A stretch of 44,503 nt of DNA from an uncultured Sphingomonadales bacterium. Lineage in GTDB: Bacteria > Pseudomonadota > Alphaproteobacteria > Sphingomonadales > Sphingomonadaceae. The number at the start of each line of letters is the position of its first letter. Position 1 is the stretch's first letter. A program made the position numbers and the translations under genes. Location of the stretch: NCBI GenBank assembly GCA_903911985.1, contig CAIWFP010000014.1:1-44503 (forward strand). Direction: 5' to 3'. Under the pieces are notes generated by a model. It saw nothing but the letters and a program-made list of their open reading frames with translations. It was not told where the DNA came from and searched no databases. Positions 760 through 31,572 of this stretch are shown here, piece by piece.

Positions 760-800
760 TCAACATATTTGTTGACTATCGGCTGAGGCACTTGTAACTT
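760..800 (+). promoter_or_regulatory. Operator A (TCAAC-N6-GTTGA) overlapping a sigma70-like promoter
   Basis: TCAACATATTTGTTGA at 760-775. TTGACT (772-777), 17-nt spacer, TAACTT (795-800). Confidence 0.7.
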
Positions 801-883
801 CTCAACATGTTAGCCTGGGTCTTATCGGCCAATTCACGGGCGGTGAGGTGCCTGCAGCCAGCGGCACAGGGGTGGAGATATCC

Positions 884-1330
884 GTGACGGACAGCGATCA
901 GATGAGCATGAATGCGCTCATGATTACACAGGAAACGCCGGTCGGGTATGCCTTGCAGCCGATCCGCAAAAAGGCCGCGATCCAGTTGATGGGATCGCGT
1001 TTGTGGGGGCGCTTCAATCCCAATCACTGGGATCCGGAATATGCCGCGGCGACTGGCTTGAAAGCGCCGATCCAGACCGGTGAGATGTCATCAGCCTATC
1101 TTGCCGAAATGTGCGTCAACCATTTTGGCGCAGCCGTGTTCGCAGGGGCGCGCATCGTGTGCAAATATGTCGCCGCAACACTGGCGGGGGAAGTCATCAC
1201 CACCCACGGCGTGGTCCGCGAAAAAATCGCCAAGGGCGATGGCTATCGCTTTGTCGTCGATATCTGGTGCGACAATGAGGCTGGCGAAAAGAAGACTGTG
1301 GGTTGGGTAGAGGTCGACGTCGGCGTCTGA
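884..1330 (+). CDS. MaoC-like hotdog-fold (R)-enoyl-CoA hydratase subunit
   Basis: NPNHWDPEYAAATGLKAPIQTG resembles the MaoC hydratase motif. GTG start chosen for the GGAG RBS just upstream (ATG at 902/908 are alternatives). Confidence 0.75.
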   Translation: MTDSDQMSMNALMITQETPVGYALQPIRKKAAIQLMGSRLWGRFNPNHWDPEYAAATGLKAPIQTGEMSSAYLAEMCVNHFGAAVFAGARIVCKYVAATLAGEVITTHGVVREKIAKGDGYRFVVDIWCDNEAGEKKTVGWVEVDVGV

Positions 1331-1363
1331 GCGCGACGCGCCGCAACGGAGATATTTTTCAAC

Positions 1364-1900
1364 ATGTCTGTAGAAATTACACAGGATCGCAGCCTGAGCC
1401 CGACAAGCCCGGTGCAAGCCGCGCAGACCCGCGCCTTCATTAAGAGTCTGGAACAGGAATGCCAGACCTATTGGGACATGGTGGAAATTGGCGACGAGTT
1501 GTCGCGCGATCTCCACATGACACCCGAGCTGATCATTCTCTATGCCGACGCAGTGGAGGATTTCAATCCGTGGTACGAAGCCTGGCGGATGAACACCTGG
1601 CAGATTTCCGGGGAATCGCCGTTCGGCGGAGCGATCGTTCCACCCTTGCTGGTTTCGCACTTTGTGCTGTCGGTCCAGTTTGATCATACCAAGCCGTTCG
1701 CGATCGGATCGATCCACACCTTTCACGATTCCGAAGTGATCAAGCCAATCATGATCGGCGCAACCGTGCGCATCACCACGCGGGCGATCGACAAGTACGA
1801 AAAGCGCGGGCGGCGCTATGTGCGGCATGCCGTGACGGTTACCGATGTTGCTGACGGCACGCTCTATTTTCGCGAAACGCGCGACATTCTCTCGCTGTAA
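1364..1900 (+). CDS. MaoC-like hotdog-fold protein (probable partner subunit)
   Basis: YADAVEDFNPWY, SPFGGAIVPP, SEVIKPIMIG and DKYEKRGRRYV fit FAS1-like/MaoC dehydratase features. Confidence 0.7.
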   Translation: MSVEITQDRSLSPTSPVQAAQTRAFIKSLEQECQTYWDMVEIGDELSRDLHMTPELIILYADAVEDFNPWYEAWRMNTWQISGESPFGGAIVPPLLVSHFVLSVQFDHTKPFAIGSIHTFHDSEVIKPIMIGATVRITTRAIDKYEKRGRRYVRHAVTVTDVADGTLYFRETRDILSL

Positions 1901-1911
1901 GGTCGGCCATC

Positions 1912-2340
1912 ATGCAAATCCCTGTGGCCGAGGGGCTGTTCGCGGTGAACGGGGCAGGCGTGCAACTGATCGGTACCCGCTGCTGTTCATGCGACACACT
2001 CTATTTCCCGCAGACCCCGGGTTGCCGAAACCCGTTGTGCCGTGACAAGCAGCTGGAGCAGGTCCTGCTGCCCGATCGTGGCACGCTCTACAGCTACACC
2101 GTGCAACGCTATCAGCCCCCTGCGTTGTTCGCGATGGATGCCTGGTCCCCTTATGCCCTGGGCCTGGTTGATCTTGGCCACGGCTTACGTGTGATGGGCA
2201 TGCTGGACGATGTGCCGCTCGACAAGATTGCCATCGGCATGGCGCTGAAGCTGTCACTGCGCACGCTCACCACCGATGAAAATGGTCAAAGCCGCGTGAC
2301 ATACGCCTTTGTGCCCGACACTACGAAGGATCACGCATGA
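1912..2340 (+). CDS. DUF35 / ChsH2-C-like Zn-ribbon + OB-fold protein
   Basis: CxxC..YFP..C...C zinc ribbon, GTLYSYT, PYALGLVDL..GLRVMG. Overlaps the thiolase start (ATGA). Confidence 0.85.
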   Translation: MQIPVAEGLFAVNGAGVQLIGTRCCSCDTLYFPQTPGCRNPLCRDKQLEQVLLPDRGTLYSYTVQRYQPPALFAMDAWSPYALGLVDLGHGLRVMGMLDDVPLDKIAIGMALKLSLRTLTTDENGQSRVTYAFVPDTTKDHA

Positions 2341-3530
2341 CCAAGCCTGTCCATGTGCTGGGCGCAGGCGCGCATCCGTGGGGCAAGTGGCCCAATCGAT
2401 CACAATTGCAACTGGCGATTGATGCGCTGGCCATGGCGATCGACGATGCCGGGCTGTCGTGGCCGGAAATCCAGGGCCTGGTCGCCGCCAGTTCGCGGTT
2501 TGAGGGCGGCATGGGCTGGGGCCTGCATGCCAACGAAGTGGTACAGGCGGTGGCCGAGCAAGGCATACCGTGTGTCAATGTCGGAGGTGCTTGCGCGGCG
2601 GGTGCAATAGCCTTTCAGACCGCGTACTCCATGATCGCGAGCGGGCAGTGCGATGTCGTAGCGGTGCTGGGCGCCGAGCGTATGCCCAAGGGATTCATCC
2701 CACGCCCGCCAGGCAGCCAGGATGACATCACCGACAGCGACTATCTGCGCTGGGTGGCGATGGGCGCGACCAATCCTGCCTATTGGGCGATCGAGGCCAA
2801 TCGCCGCAAACACGACTTTGGCACCACCGATGCAACGCTGGCCCAGGCGAGCGTACTGATGCGGCGCAACGCTGCCGGCAACCGGCTGGCGCGTTTCCGC
2901 AATCCAACCACAATTGACGAAGTCCTTGCCTCGCCGATGGTATCAGACCCCCTCCATCTCCTGGAGATCTGTCCGGTCAGCGATGGGGCCGCGGCCCTGA
3001 TCCTGGGATCGGAACAGTATGTGCAGCGATCGGGCAAGCGCCCCGTGCATGTTGCCGGGTGCGCCATCGCGACCGGCCAATTCGGCGATCCGGGTCGCCG
3101 CATCCCGACGATTTCCAGCACGGTCCGCGACGATGTTTCGCATACCAGCGAAGTGACCACGGCGGTTCAGCGTGCGCTTGCCATGGCCGGAATGGGCCCT
3201 AACGACATCGACATTCTGGAAATGGCCGACAACACGGCGTGGCATTTGCTGGCATGGCCCGAACTGTTCGGCTTTTACGAGGCAGGCCAGGGCGACTGGA
3301 TGCTGAACAATGGCAAGTTGGACATCGGTGGCGACCTCGCCGTCAACCCCAGCGGCGGCTTCCTCAGCTTTGGCGAAGCAACCACTGCGCAAGCCGTGCT
3401 GCAGGTGTGCGAACTGACGTGGCAATTGCGTGGCGAGGCGCAAGGGCATCAGGTGCCCGATGCGCGCGTCGGCATGTCGGCGGTGCTGGGCCTCGGCGCC
3501 AACGGCGGATCGGTGATTTTGAAAACCTGA
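2337..3530 (+). CDS. SCP2/Ltp-type thiolase-fold protein (lipid-transfer protein family)
   Basis: GAGAHPWGKW N-terminus, NVGGACAAG, CPVSDGAAA and VNPSGGFLSFGEA...QLRGEAQGHQVPDA. Coupled to the DUF35 gene. Confidence 0.85.
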   Translation: MTKPVHVLGAGAHPWGKWPNRSQLQLAIDALAMAIDDAGLSWPEIQGLVAASSRFEGGMGWGLHANEVVQAVAEQGIPCVNVGGACAAGAIAFQTAYSMIASGQCDVVAVLGAERMPKGFIPRPPGSQDDITDSDYLRWVAMGATNPAYWAIEANRRKHDFGTTDATLAQASVLMRRNAAGNRLARFRNPTTIDEVLASPMVSDPLHLLEICPVSDGAAALILGSEQYVQRSGKRPVHVAGCAIATGQFGDPGRRIPTISSTVRDDVSHTSEVTTAVQRALAMAGMGPNDIDILEMADNTAWHLLAWPELFGFYEAGQGDWMLNNGKLDIGGDLAVNPSGGFLSFGEATTAQAVLQVCELTWQLRGEAQGHQVPDARVGMSAVLGLGANGGSVILKT

Positions 3531-3554
3531 TCACCCCGGCTTTGCACCGCGCCC

Positions 3555-5153
3555 TTACACCTCGCGCAGTACAAAGCCCGCGTAATCGCGTTTGGCGACA
3601 TCCTGCAAAATGCGCCGATATCCCCTTACACCGCCCGAATAGGGCATGAAAACCTGCGGCTTGCCCGGCATTTCCGCGCCCATGTAGTACGATTGCGCCT
3701 TGGGATAGAGCGTCTCGAGCGACCGTTCGTTGACATGCACCACCCAGTCGGCCTGCGCGGCGTCGGTCACCTCGATCTCGTTCAGCCCGTTTTGTGCGCA
3801 ATGGCTGATGAGGCTGGCCAGCCAGTCAACCTGTTCTTCGGTCGATAGCAGGACATTGCTGAGCAACGACGGGCTGCCCGGGCCGCAAATGATGAACAGA
3901 TTGGGGAACTGCGCGACGCCAAGGCCAAGGTAGGTGCGCGGGCCAGCCGACCAGCTGGCCTGGAGCGTCGTGCCGTCGCGACCGGTGATCTGCGGCTTCA
4001 GCAACGACCCGGTGAAGGCATCGAAGCCGGTTGCATAGATCAGGATATCGACAGGATAGTCTTTCGCGCTGGTGCGAATGGCATCCGGGGTGATCGCCTC
4101 GATCGGTGTGGCTCGGATATCGACCAATTCGACATTGTCTCGACTGAACGTCTGATAAAAGCCGCTGTCGACCGAGGGGCGCCGCGAGGCAAACGGAAAG
4201 CCCTGCGGTGTCAGCTTTTCGCGCAAGACGGGATCTGGAACCAGTTCGGCAATTTTTGCGTGAATGAACGCGACCGCCGTGTCGTTGGATTCCTGGTTGA
4301 GCAGAATGTCTTTGTAGGCCAGTGCAAAACCGAAACCCAGCCGGTTCCAGGCCGCCTCGAACGTGCGAACCCGGTCGTCTTCGGGAACATCAAGCGCGGA
4401 TTGGCTGTTGGGCACAAAGCCAAGCCCACTTGGCGAATTGCGGGCGCGTTGGCGCCGCTCGGCATAGTTCGACTTGACGGTGCGATCTTCATCTTGGGTC
4501 ACCGGTGCGTTGGCGGCGGGAATTGAATAGTTTGCCGTGCGCTGGAACACGGTCAGCCGCCGCGCCTGACGCGCAATGACCGGGGTCATCTGCACACCCG
4601 ATGACCCGGTACCGATGATTGCCACTGATTTTCCGGTGAAATCAATGTGCTCGTGCGGCCATTGCGCACTGTAGATGATCCGCCCGGCAAATTGGTCCTG
4701 CCCCGGATACGTGGTCGGCTTGGGAGATGACAATTGCCCGACGGCCATGATCAGATATTGCGCATGCCACTCACGCCCATCCGCGGCCACGACGTGCCAT
4801 CGGGCCCGGTCTGCATCATACGTGGCAGAGGCCATCCGCGTGTTGAAACGGATATCACGTCGCAGATCAAAGCGTTCGGCGACATGATTGATATATTTCA
4901 AAATTTCCGGCTGAGTGGCGTAACGTTCGGTCCAGCACCATTCCTGTTCAAGCGCCGGCGAAAAGCTGTACGAATAGTCATAGCTCTCCACGTCGCAACG
5001 CGCGCCCGGATACTGATTGTGATACCATACGCCACCCACATCGGCAGAGGCTTCGAGCACGGTGGCGCGCAAGCCCTGTTCGCGAAGCGTGTACAAGGCG
5101 CGCAAACCAGCGAAACCGGCTCCCACGATCAGCACATCCACCGATTCAGACAT
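3555..5153 (-). CDS. Type I Baeyer-Villiger monooxygenase (BVMO-1)
   Basis: GAGFAG, GGVWYHNQYPGARCDVES, GTGSSG, FQRT and ATGFD motifs. Fingerprint variant FAGRIIYSAQWP. GGAGG RBS before ATG at 5153. Confidence 0.9.
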   Translation of the reverse strand: MSESVDVLIVGAGFAGLRALYTLREQGLRATVLEASADVGGVWYHNQYPGARCDVESYDYSYSFSPALEQEWCWTERYATQPEILKYINHVAERFDLRRDIRFNTRMASATYDADRARWHVVAADGREWHAQYLIMAVGQLSSPKPTTYPGQDQFAGRIIYSAQWPHEHIDFTGKSVAIIGTGSSGVQMTPVIARQARRLTVFQRTANYSIPAANAPVTQDEDRTVKSNYAERRQRARNSPSGLGFVPNSQSALDVPEDDRVRTFEAAWNRLGFGFALAYKDILLNQESNDTAVAFIHAKIAELVPDPVLREKLTPQGFPFASRRPSVDSGFYQTFSRDNVELVDIRATPIEAITPDAIRTSAKDYPVDILIYATGFDAFTGSLLKPQITGRDGTTLQASWSAGPRTYLGLGVAQFPNLFIICGPGSPSLLSNVLLSTEEQVDWLASLISHCAQNGLNEIEVTDAAQADWVVHVNERSLETLYPKAQSYYMGAEMPGKPQVFMPYSGGVRGYRRILQDVAKRDYAGFVLREV

Positions 5154-5203
5154 AAAACCTCCGCCGTGATACTGCGGCACTGCGTCTGGCCATTCGGCGA
5201 AAA

Positions 5204-5293
5204 AGTCAACAAACATGTTGACTAAAAATCGCGAAAAACTACATTTTTTCACTCTGCAATGGCATGGTAAGTGATAATCAACGTTTTCGTTGA
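5204..5293. promoter_or_regulatory. Two copies of operator A in divergent intergenic region
   Basis: AGTCAACAAACATGTTGACT (5204-5223) and TCAACGTTTTCGTTGA (5278-5293). Confidence 0.75.
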
Positions 5294-5373
5294 CATTTTG
5301 AATTACCTTTCCCAAGCATCAGATAGGGCACAGTCCGGTGCGTTCGCGACCGAAGCAGACAGGGGCAAATGGC

Positions 5374-7101
5374 GTGACAATCGGGATTGGTGCAAGGACT
5401 CGTGGCCCGGCCACTGCGCGGCAGGCTGCGCTCGCCGCCCGCTTTCCGACCTGGCAAGCCTGTCGACTGGATGAAATGCTCGACCGGGTCGCGCAGGTAT
5501 ATCCTGACCGCGCCTATATCATTACGGACACCCGGACCTGGACTTACGCCGAAGTCGCCCAGTGGTCACGACGTCTGGCGGCCGGATTGCGGGCGCAAGG
5601 CGTGACCGAAGGCGATCATGTCGCGCTGATCATGGCCAATGATCCTGCCTTCATCGCGCTCAAATTTGCCATTTCGCGCATCGGCGCCGTGGCCGTACCG
5701 ATCAACGTGCAGAACCGGCGCGATGAATTGTCCTATCTGCTGGCGCAATCCGATTGCGCCATGCTGATCACCATGGATGCCTTTCGCGACAATGACTTTT
5801 GCGCCATCCTTGATGAGTTGATGCCGGGCTGGGAAACGCAAGGCGGCGGTAAACACTATCCGCGCCTGAAGCGTGTGGCCCTGTTTCACACCGGCAGTCG
5901 CCCGTTGCGTGCCACAGCGCTGACTTTCAACAAACTGGCCTGCGACAGCACGAACAGCACAGCCGCGCCAGGCCGCACCCAAGCAACCGCAGTCTGCGAC
6001 ATCCTGTATACCTCTGGCACGACCGGAGCGCCCAAGGGGGTGATGCTGAGCCATGATCAGATGCTGCGTGCCGCTTATGGCAGCGCCTATGCGCGCGCCT
6101 TCGAAGACGGGCGTCGCATCCTGTTTTCACTGCCGCTGTACCATGTCTATGGCTATGTCGAAGGCATGCTGGCGGCCCTGTTTGTGGGCGGCGCGGTGAT
6201 TGTTCAGAGCCGGTTCGATGCCGTGGCCATGCTCACGGCGATAGAACGGCACCGGGCCACCGACTTGCTGCTGATCCCGACGATGACGCTTGCGCTGATC
6301 GATGCGGCGCAAACGGCACGCCATGATACAAGCTCGTTGCAAGGCGTGCTGTCATCGGGTGGGCGGGCGCCCGAACGCATCTGGCGGGCAATTACTGCCA
6401 CATTCGGCGATGTCGAGATCACCACCGGCTATGGCATGACCGAATGCACCGCCTCCACAACGGTCACCCGCCCGGATGACCCGGTGTCGCGCCTGATGAC
6501 CACCAACGGCCGACAACGCGATGTGGGCGTGGCGGGCGATCCCGACAGCGGCAATCGCCTCGTAACCTATCAGGTGCGCGACCCGTCCACCGGGGCGACA
6601 CTCCCGGATGACACCCCGGGCGAATTGGTGGCAAGGGGTCCGGGTGTAACCAGCGGCTATTACAACAAGCCTGCCGAAACCGCAGCGACGTTTACACCCG
6701 ATGGTTGGCTGCGCACCGGAGACCTCGGCACAATCGACAGCCAGGGCTATATCCGCCTGATCGGCCGCACCAAGGAATCCTATCGGTGCGGCGGAGAGCT
6801 GGTGCTGCCCACCGAAATCGAAGACCTGCTGACCTCCAGCAACGAGGTCCTCCAGGCGCATGTCGTGCCCATCCCCGACGAGATCATGGGCGAAATCGGC
6901 GTCGCCTTTGTTGAACTGGCGGCCGATGCGACCGCCACCCCGGACCAATTGCGCCAGCTGGTCGCCACCAGACTGGCGCGCTTCAAGGTGCCAAGACATA
7001 TCTTCATCATCAATGCCACCGATCTGCCGGTCACCGCATCCGGCCGGGTGCGCAAATTCCTGCTGGCCGAACACGCCGCGCAACGGGTGGCAAGCCTGTG
7101 A
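5374..7101 (+). CDS. AMP-dependent acyl-CoA synthetase/ligase
   Basis: ILYTSGTTGAPKG, GYGMTE, GWLRTGDLG and LPVTASGRVRK. Start uncertain (GTG 5338 or 5374). Confidence 0.9.
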   Translation: MTIGIGARTRGPATARQAALAARFPTWQACRLDEMLDRVAQVYPDRAYIITDTRTWTYAEVAQWSRRLAAGLRAQGVTEGDHVALIMANDPAFIALKFAISRIGAVAVPINVQNRRDELSYLLAQSDCAMLITMDAFRDNDFCAILDELMPGWETQGGGKHYPRLKRVALFHTGSRPLRATALTFNKLACDSTNSTAAPGRTQATAVCDILYTSGTTGAPKGVMLSHDQMLRAAYGSAYARAFEDGRRILFSLPLYHVYGYVEGMLAALFVGGAVIVQSRFDAVAMLTAIERHRATDLLLIPTMTLALIDAAQTARHDTSSLQGVLSSGGRAPERIWRAITATFGDVEITTGYGMTECTASTTVTRPDDPVSRLMTTNGRQRDVGVAGDPDSGNRLVTYQVRDPSTGATLPDDTPGELVARGPGVTSGYYNKPAETAATFTPDGWLRTGDLGTIDSQGYIRLIGRTKESYRCGGELVLPTEIEDLLTSSNEVLQAHVVPIPDEIMGEIGVAFVELAADATATPDQLRQLVATRLARFKVPRHIFIINATDLPVTASGRVRKFLLAEHAAQRVASL

Positions 7102-7868
7102 CCGCGCCTGATGCCCCCGCGCGCAGGGTCGCGCTGGTAACCGGTGCCGCACGCGGCATCGGCGCGGCGATTGCCGGGCGCCTGGCGCGTGACGGCCATG
7201 ACGTGGTCGTGCTGGACCTGGATGCCGATGCTTGCGCCGCGACCATCGCGACGGTTCATGCTTGCGGTCGGCAAGCGCTTGCGCTGGCTGCCGATGTGTC
7301 TGACGAACGGTCCGTGGCAATGGCCATCGAGGCGGCCACCGCAGCGCTTGGCGCGCCGACCATCCTGGTCAACAACGCCGGCGTGCTGCGCGACCGCACG
7401 GTCGCGAAAATGAGCCTGGACGACTGGGAAACGGTCATGGCGGTCAATCTGCGCGGCGCCTTTCTGCTGAGCCGTGCGGTACAACCGGGCATGCGTGATG
7501 CAAAATGGGGCCGGATCGTCAACCTGTCCAGCACCGCCGCGCTCGGCGCGTTTGGCGAGGCCAACTACGCGGCGGCCAAGGCCGGTATCCAGGGCTTTAC
7601 CCGGTCACTCGCGCTGGAACTGGGCCGGTACGGGATAACGGTGAACGCGGTGGCACCGGGGTTTGTCGCCACCGACATGACCCGCGCCGTGGCGGAACGC
7701 AACGGCATGACATTTGCGGCGATGGAACAGGAAATGCTCAAATCCATCGTCGTCGGGCGCGTCGGCGCGCCCGACGATATCGCCAATGCAGTTGCCTTTT
7801 TTACTGATGCGCGATCGGACTTTGTCACAGGACAAACACTTTATGTCGCGGGTGCGCCACGCGGGTAA
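7098..7868 (+). CDS. SDR family oxidoreductase (FabG-like)
   Basis: TGAARGIG, NNAG and YAAAK catalytic motif. Confidence 0.9.
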   Translation: MTAPDAPARRVALVTGAARGIGAAIAGRLARDGHDVVVLDLDADACAATIATVHACGRQALALAADVSDERSVAMAIEAATAALGAPTILVNNAGVLRDRTVAKMSLDDWETVMAVNLRGAFLLSRAVQPGMRDAKWGRIVNLSSTAALGAFGEANYAAAKAGIQGFTRSLALELGRYGITVNAVAPGFVATDMTRAVAERNGMTFAAMEQEMLKSIVVGRVGAPDDIANAVAFFTDARSDFVTGQTLYVAGAPRG

Positions 7869-7956
7869 AGGGATGGCGCAGCCACTTTGCGCCGGAGCCA
7901 TGTTTCGTTACAGATGTGGCGGTTGTTGCAGCATTGCGGCCACCCAAGGAGTTTAA

Positions 7957-8640
7957 ATGCCGAAAACCTTGAAAATGAGTGCTGACACCGCTCCCAAAAG
8001 CAAGATGGGGCAGCGCCGCACTGCTGCGCGGATGGAATCGAGTGCGATCCAGCAATTGCGCCGCAAGGAAATTGCCGAAGCCGCCGTGCGCGTGTTCAAC
8101 CGGCTGGGCTTTCAAAAAGCCACCATCAGCGCCGTTGCGGCCGAACTGAATATCGACCGGGCATCGGTCTATTATTACATTTCGTCAAAGGAAGAGCTGT
8201 TCGACGAAATCGTGCGCACCGTGGTCGAGCGCAACCTTGAAACCGTTCACCGTATCGAATTGAGCGATTTGCCGCCGCGCCGCAAATTGCGCGATGTCAT
8301 CACCACCCTGATGTCATCCTATGCCGAAAACTATCCATTGTTTTACATATATATCCGCGAAAATCTCAGCCAGGTCAGCGACCGGCGATCAGACTGGTCG
8401 CGCTATATGCGGGAACTGAACCGGAAAACCTCGGAATCGCTGATTGCGATCATCGAACAGGGCTATGCCGACAAGAGTTTCCGCAACGTCGGATCGGCCA
8501 AAGTGGTGGCCTATGGCGCGCTTGGCATCGTCGGATGGACGCATCGGTGGTTCCGGCCGGAAACCAGCGAAGTCAATGCCGAGGAAATCGGCAAGATCTA
8601 TGCGGAAATGATCCTGAACGGTCTGGAGAACCCCTATTAA
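7957..8640 (+). CDS. TetR/AcrR family regulator (KstR2-like C-terminus), TetR-1
   Basis: HTH IAEAAVRVFNRLGFQKATISAVAAELNIDRASVYYYISSKEELF. C-terminal GIVGWTHRWFRP. Confidence 0.9.
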   Translation: MPKTLKMSADTAPKSKMGQRRTAARMESSAIQQLRRKEIAEAAVRVFNRLGFQKATISAVAAELNIDRASVYYYISSKEELFDEIVRTVVERNLETVHRIELSDLPPRRKLRDVITTLMSSYAENYPLFYIYIRENLSQVSDRRSDWSRYMRELNRKTSESLIAIIEQGYADKSFRNVGSAKVVAYGALGIVGWTHRWFRPETSEVNAEEIGKIYAEMILNGLENPY

Positions 8641-8650
8641 GCACGGGCAC

Positions 8651-9391
8651 ATGACTGGACGTCTGGCCGGCAAACGCGCCATTGTTACGGGCGGCGGTCA
8701 AGGCATTGGCCGTGCCGCGGTCGAACTGTTTGCCGCCGAAGGCGCGCATGTGCTGGCGCTCGACCTGGCCGCAGCCGCGCTGGCCGATGTGCAACAGGCC
8801 TGTGGTTGCGATACACGCGTGGTCGATGTTACGCAGGCCGATGGGATCGGTGCGATCGTGCAGGAGGCCGGACCCGTTGATATCCTGTTCCTGTGCGCAG
8901 GATATGTCCCGATCGGGACGATCCTCGACAGTGACCCGCAACAATGGGACCGCGCCTTCGCCGTCAACGTCACCGCCATGTATCACATGATCCGCGCCGT
9001 ACTGCCCGGCATGCTGGTACGCCAGACCGGATCGATCATCACGATGTCGTCGGTGGCGGGTTCGGTGCGCGGCGTGCCCGATCGATGCGTCTATGCCGCA
9101 ACGAAAGCGGCGGTAATCGGCCTGACCAAGTCGGTTGCCGCCGATTTTGCGGGCCAGGGCATCCGCTGCAACGCCATCTGCCCCGGAACCATCGATACCG
9201 GCTCGCTCAATGCCCGTTTGCGCGAAACGACGGATTATCAGGCTGCGCGCGCGGCGGTGGTGGCACGCCAGCCGATGGGCAGAATGGGCACGGCTGCCGA
9301 AATTGCGCAGGCTGCGGTCTATCTCGCCAGCGATGAATCCCGTTTCACCACCGGTCAATGCCACATCATTGATGGCGGTTGGGCAAACTGA
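8651..9391 (+). CDS. SDR family oxidoreductase (BDH2-like)
   Basis: TGGGQGIG, YAATK, NAICPGTIDT and ARQPMGRMG..EIA. Confidence 0.88.
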   Translation: MTGRLAGKRAIVTGGGQGIGRAAVELFAAEGAHVLALDLAAAALADVQQACGCDTRVVDVTQADGIGAIVQEAGPVDILFLCAGYVPIGTILDSDPQQWDRAFAVNVTAMYHMIRAVLPGMLVRQTGSIITMSSVAGSVRGVPDRCVYAATKAAVIGLTKSVAADFAGQGIRCNAICPGTIDTGSLNARLRETTDYQAARAAVVARQPMGRMGTAAEIAQAAVYLASDESRFTTGQCHIIDGGWAN

Positions 9392-9425
9392 CCGGACCAT
9401 CATCATTTGGTGTCGAAGGGGCTTG

Positions 9426-9439
9426 ATACCAGCTGGTAT
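9426..9439. promoter_or_regulatory. Operator B (ATACC-N4-GGTAT)
   Basis: Perfect palindrome ATACCAGCTGGTAT. It sits within a possible TTGATA(9423)-N17-TATACC promoter upstream of the CaiB operon. Confidence 0.65.
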
Positions 9440-9538
9440 TGATATTATACCAATAAGGATGAAATCGCCAGACGCCGGTATCCGCATTGCAGGCGCCGAA
9501 CCAACGCCTGGCTGCCACGAACAAAAGGGATCAGGGAT

Positions 9539-10633: not shown

Positions 10634-10634
10634 C

Positions 10635-12260: not shown

Positions 12261-12262
12261 CG

Positions 12263-15154: not shown

Positions 15155-15168
15155 CCGCAATCCCACAC

Positions 15169-15189
15169 CAGGTCGAACAGATCGACCTG
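15169..15189. terminator. Hairpin between convergent genes
   Basis: CAGGTCGA-acaga-TCGACCTG. No U-tract. Confidence 0.35.
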
Positions 15190-15290
15190 CGCCCGAAACC
15201 GTGCACGCGCGGGAGGGGAAAACGCCGGGGGGTCTGCGGCAATGGACCGCTCGCTCCTGGCCGGTAGTGCGGCATTGTCAGCGCGACACT

Positions 15291-17663: not shown

Positions 17664-17666
17664 AAG

Positions 17667-19159: not shown

Positions 19160-19167
19160 GGGCAGGG

Positions 19168-23254: not shown

Positions 23255-23288
23255 TTGTCAGGTATACAAAACTCATTGGATCATTTCA

Positions 23289-23302
23289 ATACTGGCTGGT
23301 AA
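23289..23302. promoter_or_regulatory. Operator B, degenerate copy in divergent BVMO-3/SDR spacer
   Basis: ATACTGGCTGGTAA, two mismatches to ATACC-N4-GGTAT, in an AT-rich 83-bp spacer. Confidence 0.5.
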
Positions 23303-23337
23303 GTTTTTTCGGTACTCCTCGCTGGCATGGGACGAAC

Positions 23338-24108
23338 ATGGATACAGTGACAGGCAAAGTGGCGGTTGTAACAGGCGCCGGAGCCGGCATCGGCCGGGCA
23401 GTGGCGATCCGCCTGGCCAGGGCAGGCTGCGCGGTCGGCCTGATCGATCTGGACCCGGCCGGGCTGGCCCAAACCCGGGATCTGGTCGAAGCCATCGATG
23501 GGCATGCGGCATGTGCGATTGCCGATGTTTCGTTGCGTGAAGACGTCGACGCTGGTCTGCAGGCACTCGCCACAAGCCTGGGGCCGGTAGATATTCTGGT
23601 CAACAACGCCGGAATCCTGAACACTTGCGGGTTTCTCGAAATCACCGATGCTCAATGGCGCCGGACGTTTGCCATCAATCTCGATGGTGCGTTCTTCTGT
23701 TGTCAGGCCGTGCTGGGCAGCATGGTCGCGCGCGGATCGGGATGCGTGATCAACATGGCGTCGTGGACGGGCAAGCAAGGGGTCGCACAGCATGCGGCCT
23801 ATGGCGCGACCAAAGCCGCGCTGATCAACCTCACCCAAAGCCTGGCGGCGGAATTCGGGCCACAGGGAATCCGCGTGCACGCCGTCTGCCCAGGCATCAT
23901 TGTCGATACCGAGATGCGCGCCGCCGCCGAGGAACGCAATCGCGCACAAGGCCTGCCCGCGATGGAAACCCGGGTGCAGGCAGTGCCGTTGCGGCGCGGC
24001 GGCATGCCGTCCGAAGTGGCCGAGCTGGTCGCGTTTCTTGCTTCGGATGCGGCCGGCTATATGACCGGACAGGCCATCAATGTGACCGGCGGATTGTGGA
24101 TGAACTGA
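23338..24108 (+). CDS. SDR family oxidoreductase (possible secondary alcohol dehydrogenase)
   Basis: TGAGAGIG, NNAG, YGATK and TGQAINVTGG. Confidence 0.9.
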   Translation: MDTVTGKVAVVTGAGAGIGRAVAIRLARAGCAVGLIDLDPAGLAQTRDLVEAIDGHAACAIADVSLREDVDAGLQALATSLGPVDILVNNAGILNTCGFLEITDAQWRRTFAINLDGAFFCCQAVLGSMVARGSGCVINMASWTGKQGVAQHAAYGATKAALINLTQSLAAEFGPQGIRVHAVCPGIIVDTEMRAAAEERNRAQGLPAMETRVQAVPLRRGGMPSEVAELVAFLASDAAGYMTGQAINVTGGLWMN

Positions 24109-24164
24109 CCTGTGCCAGCCCACCGCTGGCGCGTGACTGCCCCGGTGCTACGAAGGATACCACA

Positions 24165-25085: not shown

Positions 25086-25093
25086 AACCGGCG

Positions 25094-25120
25094 TGCGCGA
25101 TGCGTTTACCGCATCGCGCA
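25094..25120. terminator. Hairpin between convergent esterase and ALDH
   Basis: TGCGCGATGCG-tttac-CGCATCGCGCA 11-bp stem, flanked by GAAACC/GGTTTC. Confidence 0.6.
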
Positions 25121-25125
25121 AGGTT

Positions 25126-26538
25126 TCAGGCAAGCACCGCCTTTGAGCGGTTGATGATTTTGGCCTGGGTGAATTCGGCCAGCCCCAGCTCCGACATTTC
25201 GGTGCCGACGCCCGACATTTTTGCGCCGGAAAACGGAATGTCCGGGTCGAAATCGGCGTGCTGGTTGATCCACACCGATCCGGAATCGAGTTGATCGGCC
25301 ACTTGTTGCGCGCGGACGGCATCGTTTGACCACACCGAATTGCCCAGCCCGAATTCGCTGGCATTGGCCCGCGCAATCGCGCCGGCGACATCGTCATAGC
25401 GCAGCACCGGCAGCACCGGGCCAAACTGCTCCTCGCGCACCAGCCGGGCGTCATCGCCAATATCGCGCACGATCGTGGGATTGATGAAAAAGCCTGGGCC
25501 TGCGGGACAATCGCCACCGGCAATGATCAGGCCCTCGTCCCGGGATTCATCGATCAAGGCCCTGACCTTGTCGTACTGCATGCGGTTCTGCACCGGCCCC
25601 AGCTGCGTGCCCTGTTCCAGCCCCGGTCCGACGATCCGGTTTTTCGCAATATCGGCCAGCCGGTCGCACATCGCATCATATTGGCTGTCGTGGACATAGA
25701 GGCGCTTGATCGCGATGCACAGCTGGCCATTGTTGGCAAAGGCGGCGTCGAACAGTTTGGGGGCGACCACATCGGGATCGCAATCGTCAAGAACGATGGC
25801 GGAATCGTTGCCGCCCAGCTCAAGCGTCAGGCGTTTCAGACTGGCGGCGCTCGATGCCATGACTTTTGTGCCGGTCGCGGTCGACCCGGTAAAAGTGACT
25901 TTGCGCACTTTGGGATGCGCGGTCAGCACGTGGCCCAGATCGTTGTGGTCGGTCACGATATTCAGCACACCGGCCGGAATGATGTCCTTGACCAGCGCGC
26001 CGAACAACAATGTGGTCAGTGGGGTGGTCGGTGCGGGCTTCAGCACCACCGTGTTGCCGGTAATGAGCGCTGCACCCAGCTTGTTGGTGCCGGTCAGCAA
26101 TGGAAAATTCCAGGGCACGATCGCCGCAACCACGCCCAAGGGCACGCGATGCAGTTCGACACGCCGTGTTTCGCTGTCTTCGCGCACTTCGACCGGCAGG
26201 CGCGCATTGGCGTAGTTGCGCATGAACCATGCCGCGCCGCCCACTTCGGCCCGTGCATCAGCCAGTGGCTTGCCCTGCTCGCTGGTCAGCAGGCGCGCAA
26301 GTGCCTCAAGATTGGCCTCGATCACATCGGCAATGCGGACCATGATCGCGCTGCGGTCCTCGACCGGCGTGGCGGCCCAGGCGGGAAATGCCGCTGCGGC
26401 CGCAGCCACTGCCTGTTCGACTTGTGCCTCGGACGCGCAGGCGCAGGTTGCAAACAACGCACCCGTGGCCGGATCGACCACATCCAGAGTCCGGTCGCCG
26501 GAAACCAGCTTGCCGTCGATCAGCAGGTCATATGTCAT
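25126..26538 (-). CDS. NAD(P)-dependent aldehyde dehydrogenase
   Basis: PWNFP, FTGSTATG, LELGGND, catalytic GQLCIA and EEQFGPVLP. Confidence 0.93.
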   Translation of the reverse strand: MTYDLLIDGKLVSGDRTLDVVDPATGALFATCACASEAQVEQAVAAAAAAFPAWAATPVEDRSAIMVRIADVIEANLEALARLLTSEQGKPLADARAEVGGAAWFMRNYANARLPVEVREDSETRRVELHRVPLGVVAAIVPWNFPLLTGTNKLGAALITGNTVVLKPAPTTPLTTLLFGALVKDIIPAGVLNIVTDHNDLGHVLTAHPKVRKVTFTGSTATGTKVMASSAASLKRLTLELGGNDSAIVLDDCDPDVVAPKLFDAAFANNGQLCIAIKRLYVHDSQYDAMCDRLADIAKNRIVGPGLEQGTQLGPVQNRMQYDKVRALIDESRDEGLIIAGGDCPAGPGFFINPTIVRDIGDDARLVREEQFGPVLPVLRYDDVAGAIARANASEFGLGNSVWSNDAVRAQQVADQLDSGSVWINQHADFDPDIPFSGAKMSGVGTEMSELGLAEFTQAKIINRSKAVLA

Positions 26539-26565
26539 GCCGTGGTCCTTGGTGATGTGACGGGA

Positions 26566-28707
26566 TCAGTTGCCATTAACGGCCAGATTGCGCGCACGGG
26601 CCGCAACATAGCCCCGCACCGCCTCGGCATCGGCCGGCGTCAGCCATTTTTTGAAACTGACCATGCCGTTGTCGGACAACGCCCCGCCGATAACCACCTG
26701 GTTCCACCCGGCCTTGCTGGCCAGCAATGGATCGCGCCGCAAATCCGGCACTACGCCGGATGACCGCGCTGTTCCGCCATGGCAAACTGAGCAGGTTTCT
26801 TCGTAAATATGCCCGCCGCGTGCCAGGGTCTTGGCCGACCAGGTCGATTTCACCACCACCGCCGGAGCGGGGGCGACGTGATCGACATGATAGGCGGCGT
26901 CGCCACCCAGAGCGAACACCAGCAGACGACCATTGGGCCGGGGTCCGGCATTGTCCGCCAGTGCGGCGCCAATACCATAGCCACCGCCATATCCGGCCAT
27001 CACCGCAACATATTGACGACCATTCACCGCATAGGTGACGGGCGGCGCCATGATGCCGATTTCGGCATCAAACGACCACAGCTTCTGCCCCTTGTCGGCG
27101 GTATAGGCATTGACCGTGCCGCGCGAGGTACCCTGAAACACCAGATTCCCGGCGGTCGCCAGTACGCCGCCATTCCACGGGCCATCGTATTGCACCCGCC
27201 ACGCTTCCTTTTGCGTGATCGGGTTCCATGCGGCGAGATGCCCCTTGAGCATGGCGCGCACGGCTTTGAGCTGCGCCGTCTTGTTTGGCAGCGTGTTCGC
27301 ACCCAGTTCGATCCCCAGGTTCCAGCCGCCGTCACGTTTGATGAACGGGTGATCGGATTTGTAGAGCATCGGCACTTCCTGCGCCGGAATATAGGCCAAC
27401 CCGGTCTGCGGGCTGAACGCCATCGGCTGCCAGTTGTGCGCGCCCTGCCCCGATGGCAGCGAGACAAACGGTCCCTTGGCATAACGCGCATTCGGCGTTT
27501 CGTTCGGGCGGCCGGTGGCCATGTCGATGCCGGTGGTCCAGGTTTGCGTCGCGTAATTGTTGGCCGAAATCAGCCGGCCATTGGCGCGGTCTATAACGTA
27601 GAAAAAACCGTTTTTCGGCGCCTGCATCAGGATTTTGCGATTCTGCCCGCCGATGTTCAGATCGCTGAGGATGACCGATTGGGTCTGGTCGAAATCCCAC
27701 ACCTCTCCCGGTGAGCCACCATAGTGCCATTTGTAGGCACCGGTGTCGGCATCAACCGCAACGATGGAATCAAGAAACAGGTTGTCGCCCTTGTCCGCCG
27801 ACCGCGTGCGCCGATCCCAGGGCGTGCCGTTACCGACGCCAAAAATGACCTGGTTGAATTCCTGATCATAGACAATCGTGTCCCACACCGGACCGCCGCC
27901 GCCCAGCTTGCCGTAATCGCCGGCCCAGGTTGCCTGCATCTTTGGGATCACCGCATCCGAAGCTGCGCCATCAGCGGGCGCACCCTTGGCCGGAGGAACG
28001 GTGTAGAAGCGCCAGGCCAGTTTGCCGGAATTGGCATCATAGGCACTGATATACCCGCGCACGCCATATTCGCCGCCGCCATTGCCGATCAGCACGCGGC
28101 CCTTCGCAATGCGCGGCGCGCCGGTGATGGTATAGGGTTTCGACTGGTCGACGGTGACGGTGGACCATACCGGTGATCCGGTTTTAGCGTCGAGCGCGAT
28201 CAACCGCCCGTCGAGTGTACCAAAGTAAAACTTGCCTTCGAACAGGACCCCGCCGCGGTTGACGACATCGCAGCAAGCCTTGAACCCGGTCTCTCCGGGA
28301 ACCTTGGGGTCATAGGACCACAGCACATTGCCGCTGGTAGCATCGAAGGCATAGACCTTTGACCAAGATGTGGTGGTGTAGAGTACGCCATCTTGAACCA
28401 GCGGCGTCGCTTCCATCCCCCGCGCGGTGTCGAATTCATGACTCCACGCCAGGCCCAGACCGGCGGCGTTTTGCGCGTTGATCGCGGTCAGCGGGCTAAA
28501 CCGGGTTTCTTCGCTATTACCACCATAGGTTGTCCAGTTGGCAAAGCTCGGGGGTGCTGGCACGGGTGACGGTGTTGGCGTTGGTGCAACGACCACTTCA
28601 GCCATGGGTTTGGCGCCGGGCGCGGCGCTGTTCATGGCGCCTTGCGCCGCGCATCCCATCAACATCATAACTGCTGCAACGCTTGCCACTCTTCGCATCC
28701 GGACCAC
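26566..28707 (-). CDS. PQQ-dependent quinohemoprotein alcohol dehydrogenase (type II, C-terminal cytochrome c)
   Basis: Signal/lipobox-like LMGC, ACCDVVNRG vicinal cysteines, GNGGGEYGVRG, GAHNWQPM, CSVCH heme site and GMVSF. Confidence 0.92.
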   Translation of the reverse strand: MVRMRRVASVAAVMMLMGCAAQGAMNSAAPGAKPMAEVVVAPTPTPSPVPAPPSFANWTTYGGNSEETRFSPLTAINAQNAAGLGLAWSHEFDTARGMEATPLVQDGVLYTTTSWSKVYAFDATSGNVLWSYDPKVPGETGFKACCDVVNRGGVLFEGKFYFGTLDGRLIALDAKTGSPVWSTVTVDQSKPYTITGAPRIAKGRVLIGNGGGEYGVRGYISAYDANSGKLAWRFYTVPPAKGAPADGAASDAVIPKMQATWAGDYGKLGGGGPVWDTIVYDQEFNQVIFGVGNGTPWDRRTRSADKGDNLFLDSIVAVDADTGAYKWHYGGSPGEVWDFDQTQSVILSDLNIGGQNRKILMQAPKNGFFYVIDRANGRLISANNYATQTWTTGIDMATGRPNETPNARYAKGPFVSLPSGQGAHNWQPMAFSPQTGLAYIPAQEVPMLYKSDHPFIKRDGGWNLGIELGANTLPNKTAQLKAVRAMLKGHLAAWNPITQKEAWRVQYDGPWNGGVLATAGNLVFQGTSRGTVNAYTADKGQKLWSFDAEIGIMAPPVTYAVNGRQYVAVMAGYGGGYGIGAALADNAGPRPNGRLLVFALGGDAAYHVDHVAPAPAVVVKSTWSAKTLARGGHIYEETCSVCHGGTARSSGVVPDLRRDPLLASKAGWNQVVIGGALSDNGMVSFKKWLTPADAEAVRGYVAARARNLAVNGN

Positions 28708-28736
28708 CCATGCTTGTTTGTGTGTTTATGTCCCTC

Positions 28737-28786
28737 AAAAACCGAAAAAGATCTGCTGCCCGTTCGGGACAACAAATCTTTTTCGG
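28737..28786 (-). terminator. Intrinsic terminator-like hairpin between TonB receptor and ADH
   Basis: Minus strand CCGAAAAAGATTTGTTGTCC-cgaac-GGGCAGCAGATCTTTTTCGG (20-bp stem with G-U pairs) followed by TTTTT. Confidence 0.65.
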
Positions 28787-28799
28787 CGTAAGGTATTTA

Positions 28800-31313
28800 T
28801 CAGAACTTCATCGAGAATTCCGCACCGAACGTGCGCGGAGCAGCCCGGATGAAATAGTCACTGCCATACGAACCCTCGACGTTGATCGCGTTGGGGTAAT
28901 AGACTTTGTCGGTGAGGTTCTTAACGTAAGCGGCCAGGCTGTAATGATCGGTCTTGTACGAAATCCGGCCATTGATCAGCCAGTAGTCGCCACCACCCTG
29001 GCGGATCGGACCCTTGCCCTGGTTGACGCTGGAACCGTTGGCACCGACATAGTTATAGCCACCGAAAACGTCGTAGTAATAGTGGCCGGTATAGCTGGTG
29101 TCGGCGTGCAGCGTCACGGTACCCGTGGCGGTTTTCAGAACCTTCCAGTCAGCACCGATGTTGGCCGAAACCTTGCTAGCGTAAGGGAACGGATTGCCAC
29201 CGACATCGATGTTGCCGCCCGCAGTCGAAATACAGTTGCCCTGCTGCGGCGGCGTTCTGCCAATCGCACCGGACGGGCAGTTAGCATGATCGAACTTACT
29301 GTCCAGCACGCCCAGGCTGGCCGTCAGGTGCAGCGTGTCGGTTGCGGCAAATTCCAGATCCGCATCGAGACCGGTTTCCTTACCGTCGAGGTTGATGAGG
29401 AAGGTCACCGAGCTGGGATCAAGCAGTTGCTGTTGCTGGTTCTTGTAGGTGTAGTGGAACACCGAAGCATTGAACTGCAGTCGGTTATCAAAGAAGCGGC
29501 TCTTCACACCGAATTCAAACGCGTCCACGGTTTCAGGCCGCACGAAATAGACCTGCTTGGCAGACTGGAAAGCCAGACCGTTGTACGTGCCACCGCGATA
29601 ACCACGGCTGTAGCTGGCATAGGCCAACACGCGATCGGCCAACTGGTAATCTACAATCGCACGCCCGGTCAGGCTCGAAGACTTGTCGCGCCGGTTGAGC
29701 GGATTGGCGGCGCCCGGCGAAACACCAATGGTATAGTTGCCCGCCGCATAGTCGGACACCGTGTAGAGCCGTGCCGCGCCGGTACCGTCGTAGAACGTGG
29801 TCAGCGCGTCCAGATAGCCGAAGTGGTCGTTCGTGTAACGAAGCCCGGCGGTCAGCTTCAGCTTGCTGGTAACCGCATAGCTGCCTTCACCGTAGATTGC
29901 CGCAGAGGTACGCTCCTGCGTGTAGTTCTGCGTGGCATCCAGCGGCGTGATCAGGCCGTCACCGGTCAGACCACCAGGATTGAAATGAGTCAGCGGATTG
30001 CCAACCGCAGCATTTACGCCAGCAAGGAAGTCATAGAAGTGCGGCGTGTTGTTGGTCACGATACGGTCGTAACCGTAATAGACGCCGCCGATCAGCTTCA
30101 ACTGGTCGCCGGTATAATCGATGCGCAAGTCTTGGTTGAAGCTTTTCGATTTTGATTCGTAGCCGATGGCGCAGACAGGGTAAGGTGTACCGTCGCAATC
30201 GATGGTCGGTAGCAGGCCAAAGTGGGTCTGGTCATATTCGGTCGACGAGATCAGCTTGACCCGATCAGCCAGGTCGATCTTTGCCGAAAGCACCGCGCCA
30301 AACGTCTTGACGACCGCAGTACCGATCTGGTCGTCCTTGATCTGCAGCGTGCTCAGCCCGCTTCCAGACGCGCTGTAGGCCTGCGGAAACAGCTTGGACA
30401 GGTCGTGCCCATTGCCAAACAGCGTTGATGCCAGCGGCGTGTAGAAAAACGCTAGTGCCGAATTGGCAAGGCTGATGGTGTCGTCGGTCAGCGAAGGGCC
30501 GTGGTTCTGCGGCGAATCTTGACCACCGCTCGACTGGCTGGCATACAGTTTCAGGCTTAGGTCGACACCCGGCGACGGGCGAAATCGGATCTGGCCACGT
30601 AGGCCAAAGCTCTCGGCGCCGCCTGGTGAAATGCCACCGGGATAGACGTTCTTGATGTAGGGATTTGCCTTCACGTAGTTGCCGGCAATACGAATGCCAA
30701 GCACATCTTCGATCGGCGTAAGCTCGATCGCGCCTTCGGCACTGCGGCGGTTGTATGAACCATAGCCGACGGTCAGATAGCCGTTCTGGCCATGCAGCGA
30801 AGGTTTGTTGGTGTTGAAATTGATCGCGCCGCCAGTGGTGTTGCGGCCATAGAGAGTGCCCTGAGGGCCACGCACCACTTCGACTTGCGCCAGATCATAC
30901 AGCTGCTGACCTTGGGCAGCGCGGAACGACTGATAGACTTCATCGACGTAAACCCCGACCGGCGACGCGGCGTTGGAGTTGTATTCGGTGCCTACACCCA
31001 CGCCACGCAGCGTGAAATTCGGCTGGGTTTCACCATAGGCCGAGCTGACCTGCAGGTTGGGAATCGAGTTGTTCATGTCGGCGGTCGAAAACACGCCCTG
31101 CGATTTCAACTTGTCCGACGAGATCGCCGTAACCGAAACCGGCACCTTCTGCAGGTTTTCGCTTCTGCGCGTGGCGGTAACGATAATTTCGGCAAGCCCG
31201 CCGGGCGCAGCCGGTGCTGCCACCTCGGCCGGAGCAGCCGCCTGCGCCATTGCCGGCAGCGGCATGGCGCAGCCGCACATGATCGCAATTTTTACAACAG
31301 TAGCCCGCTTCAT
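28800..31313 (-). CDS. TonB-dependent outer membrane receptor
   Basis: Signal peptide, EIIVTATRRSENLQKVPVSVTA TonB box/plug, VEVVRGPQGTLYGRNTTGGAIN and C-terminal PRTFGAEFSMKF. Confidence 0.95.
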   Translation of the reverse strand: MKRATVVKIAIMCGCAMPLPAMAQAAAPAEVAAPAAPGGLAEIIVTATRRSENLQKVPVSVTAISSDKLKSQGVFSTADMNNSIPNLQVSSAYGETQPNFTLRGVGVGTEYNSNAASPVGVYVDEVYQSFRAAQGQQLYDLAQVEVVRGPQGTLYGRNTTGGAINFNTNKPSLHGQNGYLTVGYGSYNRRSAEGAIELTPIEDVLGIRIAGNYVKANPYIKNVYPGGISPGGAESFGLRGQIRFRPSPGVDLSLKLYASQSSGGQDSPQNHGPSLTDDTISLANSALAFFYTPLASTLFGNGHDLSKLFPQAYSASGSGLSTLQIKDDQIGTAVVKTFGAVLSAKIDLADRVKLISSTEYDQTHFGLLPTIDCDGTPYPVCAIGYESKSKSFNQDLRIDYTGDQLKLIGGVYYGYDRIVTNNTPHFYDFLAGVNAAVGNPLTHFNPGGLTGDGLITPLDATQNYTQERTSAAIYGEGSYAVTSKLKLTAGLRYTNDHFGYLDALTTFYDGTGAARLYTVSDYAAGNYTIGVSPGAANPLNRRDKSSSLTGRAIVDYQLADRVLAYASYSRGYRGGTYNGLAFQSAKQVYFVRPETVDAFEFGVKSRFFDNRLQFNASVFHYTYKNQQQQLLDPSSVTFLINLDGKETGLDADLEFAATDTLHLTASLGVLDSKFDHANCPSGAIGRTPPQQGNCISTAGGNIDVGGNPFPYASKVSANIGADWKVLKTATGTVTLHADTSYTGHYYYDVFGGYNYVGANGSSVNQGKGPIRQGGGDYWLINGRISYKTDHYSLAAYVKNLTDKVYYPNAINVEGSYGSDYFIRAAPRTFGAEFSMKF

Positions 31314-31376
31314 ATCCGACTCTCCCTTGCCCCGGCGCTGTGGTCTCGCGCACGCAAACGCCCGCTCCCGTCGCAG

Positions 31377-31572
31377 TCAACAGAGATGTAGATTAAGGCG
31401 ATCCATACTGTCAATAGCTGAAAGGTACCCAATCATACCCACTGGTATTTTAGCCTCTACTAGCCCAGGTGAAGCCCTCTTGATCCCTTTCCGGGTATTC
31501 CCGACACCAACGGCACCCACGCAGGCATCACCGTACCAAACGCCCGGAAATTGTTATCAACACATTTGTTGA
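31377..31572. promoter_or_regulatory. Divergent control region with operator A x2 and operator B
   Basis: TCAACAGAGATGTAGA (31377-31392), ATACCCACTGGTAT (31435-31448) and TCAACACATTTGTTGA (31557-31572). Confidence 0.7.

Follow-up and report, generated by a model that had tools for sequence, protein, structure and literature searches.

The window analysed here, a stretch of 44,503 nucleotides from an uncultured Sphingomonadales bacterium (GenBank assembly GCA_903911985.1, contig CAIWFP010000014.1; source genome G000, 2.64 Mb in 520 contigs, 75% complete), constitutes a catabolic island with a GC content of 62% as compared to 65% for the genome. It encodes four Baeyer-Villiger monooxygenases (BVMOs), a flavin-containing monooxygenase, three acyl-CoA ligases, β-oxidation enzymes and a MaoC/ChsH2/thiolase module, together with a pyrroloquinoline quinone (PQQ) dehydrogenase, an aldehyde dehydrogenase, a TonB receptor, a β-keto-acid cleavage enzyme and two TetR-type regulators, TetR-1 and TetR-2. 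The closest homologues of the island proteins are found in Sphingomonadales and Steroidobacteraceae, which points to a sphingomonad as the probable host. Distributed over this region are copies of a 16-base palindrome, TCAAC-N6-GTTGA, hereafter referred to as Operator A (Table 1), which, judged by sequence, is very likely a real and well conserved operator with TetR-1 as its repressor. The best explanation of the whole, in which we place good confidence, is that Operator A is the predicted operator of TetR-1 and that TetR-1 represses the catabolic genes of the island; it draws on the sites and how well they are conserved, on their association with TetR-1 and on the joint change of recognition helix and site, from which binding and repression would follow.

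Table 1. Predicted operator sites, promoter, regulator and target units in the window (SDR, short-chain dehydrogenase/reductase).
Feature	Position	Strand	Basis or remark
Operator, exact	760..775		before maoC-maoC-chsH2-ltp unit; 33.8 bits, genome rank 1; right half over predicted -35 (772-777)
Predicted sigma-70 promoter TTGACT-17-TAACTT	772..800	+	sequence; moderate match (5/6 + 3/6)
Predicted target unit	848..3530	+	MaoC-like, second MaoC-like, ChsH2/DUF35, PRK06059 lipid-transfer-type thiolase
GTAGA-variant site	1359..1374		over maoC2 ATG; 22.0 bits; least certain of the six
Predicted target, type I BVMO, steroid/phenylacetone monooxygenase-like	3555..5153	-	homology
Operator, exact	5206..5221		divergent bvmo/fadD region; overlaps predicted promoter 5218-5245
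Operator, exact	5278..5293		second site of divergent bvmo/fadD region; tandem pair with 5206, ~72 bp apart
Predicted target unit	5374..9391	+	acyl-CoA ligase, SDR, tetR-1, SDR
TetR-1 (TetR_N + TetR_C_24), helix DRASVYYY	7957..8640	+	likely cognate repressor (predicted)
Predicted target unit	25126..31313	-	TonB-dependent receptor, PQQ alcohol dehydrogenase with cytochrome c, aldehyde dehydrogenase
GTAGA-variant operator	31377..31392		64 bp before TonB receptor ATG
Operator, exact	31557..31572		before core operon; overlaps predicted TTGACT-17-TACCGA
Core conserved predicted target operon	31657..41727	+	long BVMO, enoyl-CoA hydratase, 3-hydroxyacyl-CoA dehydrogenase, acyl-CoA dehydrogenase, CoA ligase, SnoaL-like, β-keto acid cleavage enzyme, cyclase-family hydrolase, thiolase BktB

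The original prediction listed six sites, four exact copies and two GTAGA variants, all either intergenic or at a start codon, and both statements hold at the positions given in Table 1. Four exact copies occur in the window where 0.04 are expected and, with one mismatch allowed, six where 0.92 are expected; at least as many were obtained in 0 of 100 shuffles in either case. Among approximately 18,000 word/spacer combinations tested, Operator A is the top spaced palindrome of the window (p ~1e-6). Five of the sites are intergenic and the sixth, at 1359, lies over the ATG at 1364; a mechanically called open reading frame (3555-5315) spans the sites at 5206 and 5278, homology beginning only at the Met at 5153. 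The whole genome contains six exact copies, four of them inside the window and the other two with GC-rich spacers. A check against the background frequency had also been proposed, and here a position weight matrix built from 75 distinct foreign sites placed the six window sites at ranks 1 to 6 in the genome (33.8 to 21.6 bits; next 19.3). By this matrix scan, Operator A sites are restricted to the island and not spread genome-wide. The tandem pair at 5206 and 5278 is retained in relatives, and a GTAGA variant is present at the position equivalent to 31377 in L002, L009, L010, L011 and L056 (loci are numbered L, genomes G). The site at 1359 is less clear: none was present at any of the nine orthologous maoC2 starts examined, which weighs against it, although no site outside the window in this genome scores as high. 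We lean towards it being functional, as the weakest member of the predicted set. A half-site-like TCAACATGTT is located at 800-811, just 3' of the predicted -10 element of the first promoter.

The palindrome is similarly found in the vicinity of TetR-1 orthologues elsewhere. A genome scan with TetR-1 as query yielded loci of two kinds, 57 with orthologues of 55-100% identity and 22 with distant Bacillota TetR proteins, which served as controls; the records L001 and L056, which match the window at 98-100% identity, were dropped from all locus counts, leaving 55. Exact Operator A occurs 85 times in 43 of these 55 loci, as compared to 0-7 occurrences for the other spacers (2-5 and 7-12) in the same loci and two Operator A sites in the 22 control loci. 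The refined consensus of 75 distinct sites, RTCAACR-N4-YGTTGAY, comprises 18 bp, and the flanks are AT-rich (at 78 of 85 sites more so than the locus as a whole). Gene order is strongly shuffled between the loci, and still the sites precede the long BVMO, the TonB receptor, maoC, the bvmo/fadD pair and tetR-1; in 27/55 loci a site resides at most 450 bp upstream of tetR-1, with differing neighbours. The family is large (728 proteins at E ≤ 1e-30), and its carriers include Steroidobacteraceae and Caenibius as well as cultured strains, among them Sphingomonas faeni, S. rubra, S. psychrolutea, Aquisediminimonas sediminicola and Sphingopyxis FD7. In Sphingopyxis sp. FD7, the regulon occurs twice among insertion sequence elements on the mobilizable plasmid pSFD01 (L096/L097), which carries three tetR-1 copies (one broken) and eight sites and adjoins lig protocatechuate genes. 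Two regulon copies on such a plasmid support horizontal spread; a phenotype of strain FD7 was not found in the literature examined.

Several observations weigh against this picture. Given the kinship of the loci and the overlap between some of them, the counts are not independent trials and overstate independence. No site was found in the DRAS-type loci L008 and L051 (short) or anywhere in genome G060. In addition, 40 relatives without a TetR-1 orthologue (best 1e-15), drawn at random as a background set, contain 0-7 mostly scattered sites per genome, with means of 0.9 in same-genus and 2.1 in same-order relatives versus 4.1 in carriers. Thus, clustering rather than number is the discriminating signal. 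The site in G020, which has no recognisable regulon genes beside it, was counted as background. Genome G021, with a site and CYP101D2 and apparently no TetR-1, was considered as a counter-example and rejected, as it does have a paralogue, truncated where the contig ends.

The original prediction named TetR-1 as the likely binder, and this assignment is strengthened in three ways: predicted sites cluster at tetR-1, TetR-2 is rare, and helix and site change together. TetR-1 possesses the TetR_N helix-turn-helix and the helical ligand domain of TetR-family local repressors and, as for such repressors, the palindromic site is located at promoters of neighbouring genes, often including that of tetR-1 itself. 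It is the sole one of 19 TetR_N genes in the source genome with the helix DRASxYYY. Six carrier genomes have 19 sites in all, 18 of which are no farther than ~11 kb from tetR-1 (3/3 each in G042, G043, G044, G047 and G050, 3/4 in G051), and these genomes contain neither a TetR-2 match (E ≤ 1e-20) nor any other member of the TetR-1 subfamily. Alternatively, TetR-2, a LysR protein of the adjoining contig or a global regulator might bind Operator A, with TetR-1 merely travelling along: TetR-2 and two LysR genes do reside in the same island, and with a genome that is 75% complete a regulator could be missing. However, orthologues of TetR-2 (14549-15154; ≥62% identity) are present in only 5/30 TetR-1 genomes and 16/30 have no match at E ≤ 1e-20, no other regulator family recurs among the locus protein clusters (42 representatives scanned), the sites are confined to the island, and the site changes where the TetR-1 helix changes. 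Furthermore, a different palindrome, ATACC-N4-GGTAT, goes with the caiB-to-tetR-2 block. Both exact copies of the source genome lie in the window (9426-9439 and 31435-31448; variant at 23289-23302), and the motif precedes caiB in the window and in L003, L004, L007, L055 and L082, of which L003 ends before tetR-2 and L007 and L082 carry Operator A too; an additional copy occurs in L009. This palindrome is the better candidate operator for TetR-2. We regard binding by one of the other regulators as improbable, and it is highly probable that TetR-1 is the protein that binds Operator A. A search of the Atlas returned generic TetR clusters only.

The promoters of caiB (9400-9540) and bvmo3/sdr3 (23255-23338) carry Operator A in some relatives and not in the window (loci compared: L007, L018, L082, L083 and L096), a difference that is putative regulon rewiring between lineages.

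The proposed autoregulation of tetR-1 from the 5278 site stands in part. The gene does belong to the fadD-sdr-tetR-1 unit, 2.7 kb downstream of the 5206/5278 pair, and this gene order is retained in many relatives; no site directly precedes tetR-1 in the source genome or the near-identical L001, so that any autoregulation here would be indirect, via the promoter of this unit.

Helix and operator change together among the orthologues. L024, L045, L048 and L052 were treated separately on account of truncation, a DRES helix or a position outside the clade. Loci with a DRA[ST] helix contain 76 canonical sites in 41/43 loci and three [AG]-variant sites. A DRS[TSA] clade (seven rows, support 91/97, plus the partial L054; the tree excludes L024, L052 and L054 as too short) contains the canonical site in 0/8 loci and 13 [AG]CAAC-N6-GTTG[TC] sites, which are present in 8/8. 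Genome G059 harbors both types: 7/9 variant sites lie within 22 kb around the DRST regulator and 2/3 canonical sites at a DRAT paralogue, and as predicted sites the two motifs are largely partitioned between the clusters of the two regulators. A DRA[T] paralogue was identified in 4/4 DRST genomes searched versus 2/26 others, and paralogues (~35% identity) with a DRA[ST] helix have the canonical site at unrelated clusters. Some points tell against a simple helix/site correspondence. The switch is a single evolutionary event; L048 and one TetR of the FD7 plasmid have a DRSS helix and yet degenerate TCAAC sites; and mixed T/G sites occur in L033, L035 and L037, with one TCTAC-type site each in L040 and L049. 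As DRSS proteins outside the clade keep TCAAC-type sites, replacing Ala by Ser does not in itself bring about the change of site.

It had further been suggested that the right half of the site overlaps a TTGAC -35 element within a clean promoter at 772-800. The overlap is found family-wide; the promoter is only a moderate match and was not called in a consensus promoter scan, in which TTGACT-16-TACATT at 5218-5245 was the only one called. At 42/75 sites, TA follows the TTGA of the site at a spacer of 16-18, as compared to 9-20 in shifted control windows, and a peak of A at -11 appears at spacer 17 (42/83 orientations). Since in most cases the -35 box lies under the operator, TetR-1 likely represses by occluding the polymerase, a textbook mechanism for TetR repressors. 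The same TTGA in each half raises the possibility that the palindrome is not a protein operator and represents two -35 boxes facing in opposite directions, or else a small stem-loop, and the copy at 5278 was in fact called as a terminator-like hairpin. Given that the 6-bp spacing is fixed, that sites also precede single, non-divergent units and that in one clade the outer base has changed to A/G, spoiling TTGA and keeping the palindrome, we consider this highly improbable. The structural model of TetR-1 (predicted local distance difference test score, pLDDT, 83) suggests a standard TetR fold nearest to PfmR, Tfu 3dcf and KstR2. TetR-1 has an extra N-terminal basic stretch, in which R20 is nearly and R21 fully invariant; it may be speculated that this stretch contacts the AT-rich flanks. 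In the proposed mechanism, a TetR-1 dimer would sit over the -35 boxes of the island promoters and keep the genes for uptake, Baeyer-Villiger oxidation and acyl-CoA breakdown off, tetR-1 included through the fadD-sdr-tetR-1 unit, until a pathway intermediate releases it and the genes are turned on. Because of the related folds and the ligases among the predicted targets, an acyl-CoA is the effector we would favour, if cautiously. Against release by a ligand, TetR proteins can also act in the opposite way, as the available part of a study on AibR of Myxococcus xanthus describes binding to DNA only with ligand (PMC5389471).

Compared to characterized systems, TetR-1 and its operator appear distinct. 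The best match in sequence and fold is PfmR of Thermus thermophilus (PDB 3vpr; E 4e-19, TM 0.62-0.74), which is only 26% identical and has a KAALYHH helix. AibR, an acyl-CoA-sensing TetR with an 18-bp inverted repeat according to the same excerpt (PMC5389471), is a structural match with 18-20% identity, a different operator and a biosynthetic operon as target. EdcR of Caenibius tardaugens binds TnnCnnTACnAnTnGTAnnGnnA over the -10 box in the estrogen pathway, as stated in the accessible part of PMC8700777. Like TetR-1, it is a TetR repressor of a sphingomonad catabolic cluster with a palindromic operator at several promoters; compared by published motif, its site differs from Operator A, which lies over -35. 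Neither Operator A nor the regulon was found described in the literature, in a search missing most subscription papers and RegPrecise, and the regulon is apparently undescribed and of ordinary TetR type.

A closer comparison concerns KstR2, the TetR of Mycobacterium and Rhodococcus that responds to the CoA ester of methylhexahydroindanedione propionate (HIP), as TetR-1 might bind Operator A and control the degradation of steroid intermediates, as a proteobacterial analogue. KstR2 (PDB 4w97, 2ibd) resembles TetR-1 in its TetR_C_24 fold, a conserved helix-8 Trp (W194) and the control of acyl-CoA catabolic genes, and it is among the top folds. The window also encodes a ChsH2/MaoC/thiolase module and a steroid-monooxygenase-like BVMO, Steroidobacteraceae and Caenibius are among the carriers, and many orthologues bear the automatic JGI label 'cholesterol catabolism regulator'. 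However, identity to KstR2 is 22-27% (22% in the comparison bearing on this question), the helices differ (SGSLYHH versus RASVYYY), and the 14-bp KstR2 motif contrasts with an operator of 16-18 bp and a 6-bp spacer. The claim that Operator A is distinct from the sites of KstR and KstR2 was borne out, as neither TnnAACnnGTTnnA (KstR) nor the 14-bp AnCAAGnnCTTGnT (KstR2), both as quoted in the original prediction, has a match in the window. The Arg of 'IRDTTW' in KstR2 corresponds to the invariant Gly190 in TetR-1, the Trp being kept, a difference that also counts against the main reading. None of 37 scanned window proteins exceeded the cut-off for a steroid-specific NCBIfam model (FadD3, CasG, EchA19, steroid thiolase); with regard to HIP genes, the FadD3 model stayed below cut-off and no IpdAB-type CoA-transferase family appeared in general protein scans, in a genome that is only 75% complete. 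The JGI label was rejected as unsupported by operator, helix and gene content. As, moreover, the paralogue clusters encode camphor-type enzymes, we consider a steroid regulon unlikely.

These paralogous clusters provide the main indication for a substrate of the regulon controlled by TetR-1. Operator A precedes a camphor-type paralogous cluster in G052, G053, G057, G058 and G059 as well as in G021, a genome from outside the carrier set, encoding a CYP101D2-like cytochrome P450 (718 bits to 3NV5), a zinc-dependent alcohol dehydrogenase, two luciferase-like monooxygenases, one of which matches 3,6-diketocamphane monooxygenase at E 4e-111, a CoA ligase and, in most cases, a flavin reductase. CYP101D2 (PDB 3NV5) is a camphor hydroxylase according to the part of PMC9655578 available. 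In G057, G058 and G061 the upper-pathway genes reside within ~10-20 kb of tetR-1. A CYP101D2-like gene (≥66% identity) is present in 8/30 TetR-1 carriers versus 1/40 relatives, the latter also having Operator A and a cut-off paralogue. As described in the accessible sections of PMC6027186, CamR is the TetR repressor of the camphor catabolic genes on the CAM plasmid of Pseudomonas putida, CamS/U/V are uncharacterised TetRs, and the later steps of the route, whose upper part is matched by the paralogous clusters, are called poorly characterised. The cam gene content was taken from two reviews, and by this the paralogous clusters contain camC/camD/camE/camF-like genes; the window itself, unlike the CAM plasmid, contains no entry enzyme or upper-pathway genes, and no CAM record was among the plasmid matches. 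Since upper clusters share the operator, the core operon likely handles an alicyclic monoterpenoid ring-cleavage product delivered by several entry routes. The side chain would be activated and then shortened or cleaved by retro-aldol reaction, a BVMO would lactonise the ring ketone, the opened alcohol would be oxidised by the PQQ and aldehyde dehydrogenases, and the branched diacid would be finished by β-oxidation and β-keto-acid cleavage. The 848..3530 unit would accordingly be placed, from its gene content, as a putative hydratase/retro-aldolase-like module; its second MaoC-like gene has no Pfam match and is labelled from its position and the context given in the original prediction.

Several findings speak against camphor as such. 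At ≥66% identity, 22/30 TetR-1 genomes are without a CYP101D2-like gene, two of these having a relative at 55-56%; the best matches in the source genome, itself 75% complete, reach 40% for CYP101, 32% for hydroxycamphor dehydrogenase and 27% for diketocamphane monooxygenase; and the first BVMO of the window resembles steroid/phenylacetone monooxygenase more than it does OTEMO. TetR-1 might therefore bind Operator A in the service of another alicyclic or branched acid class, such as cycloalkyl/naphthenic acids, jasmonate- or ionone-type norisoprenoids or labdanoid fragments, with camphor handled by the paralogue only. Most carriers have no camphor upper genes, the enzymes present would suit ring ketones bearing acyl side chains in general, and identity between the P450 of window-like clusters and the CYP101D2-like proteins does not exceed 48-56%; the shared operator, the fact that the camphor-type cluster is physically linked in three genomes and the unequal distribution of the CYP101D2-like gene argue in the other direction. 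We view such a different acid as a possible but less probable substrate, and an alicyclic monoterpenoid of the camphor type as a proposal for which the evidence is evenly balanced. A link to the Ambrox pathway of Sphingomonas was rejected as unsupported: in the part of PMC13599519 available the genes are dispersed, and CamC-1, judged by eye, is not close to the P450 of the L006 cluster. In L085, L087, L090, L092 and L097, ribBA and flavin reductase accompany the luciferase-like monooxygenase clusters, which suggests a co-regulated flavin supply.

The analysis names an operator, a regulator and a set of genes for a catabolic regulon of wide distribution (57 genome loci). The set includes candidates for the late steps of camphor degradation, which PMC6027186 calls poorly characterised. 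With the switch of helix and operator, the rules of TetR recognition can be examined on natural variants, and the pair might be turned into biosensors. Most tentatively, it might be speculated that an undescribed TetR subfamily runs bicyclic-monoterpenoid catabolism in freshwater and leaf sphingomonads and Steroidobacteraceae, that the core operon represents the lower camphor pathway from the level of trimethylpimelyl-CoA to isobutyryl-CoA, and that the rewiring of TCAAC to [AG]CAAC in one lineage insulates, inside a single cell, the lower from the upper regulon as a natural orthogonal pair of repressor and operator.

The island extends beyond the window. Contig C43 (L098, L099) of the same genome overlaps the window start by 141 bp and adds ~25 kb, encoding a luciferase-like monooxygenase, a BVMO, CaiB, HpcH aldolases, two LysR proteins and TonB receptors, with integrase-core fragments at the bounds; no Operator A site above 11 bits was detected on C43 in the matrix scan. 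In relatives, an enoyl-CoA hydratase gene lies between the operator pair and fadD, which is absent in the window (5293-5374), where ATG-GCG-TGA, a frame of three codons, shares bases with the probable GTG start codon at 5374. Some relatives have MFS, CYP101-like and TonB genes after tetR-2, also absent here (15154-15291). The stretch at 16536-19417 encodes an Rv3169-family protein, a 168-residue protein of unknown type and an APH-like phosphotransferase, a block without Operator A. At the right island end, the region 41900-42930 is of low GC content (50% at 42001-43000) and contains GGGGGTAT repeats and transposase-like remnants; it is likely a mobile-element scar.

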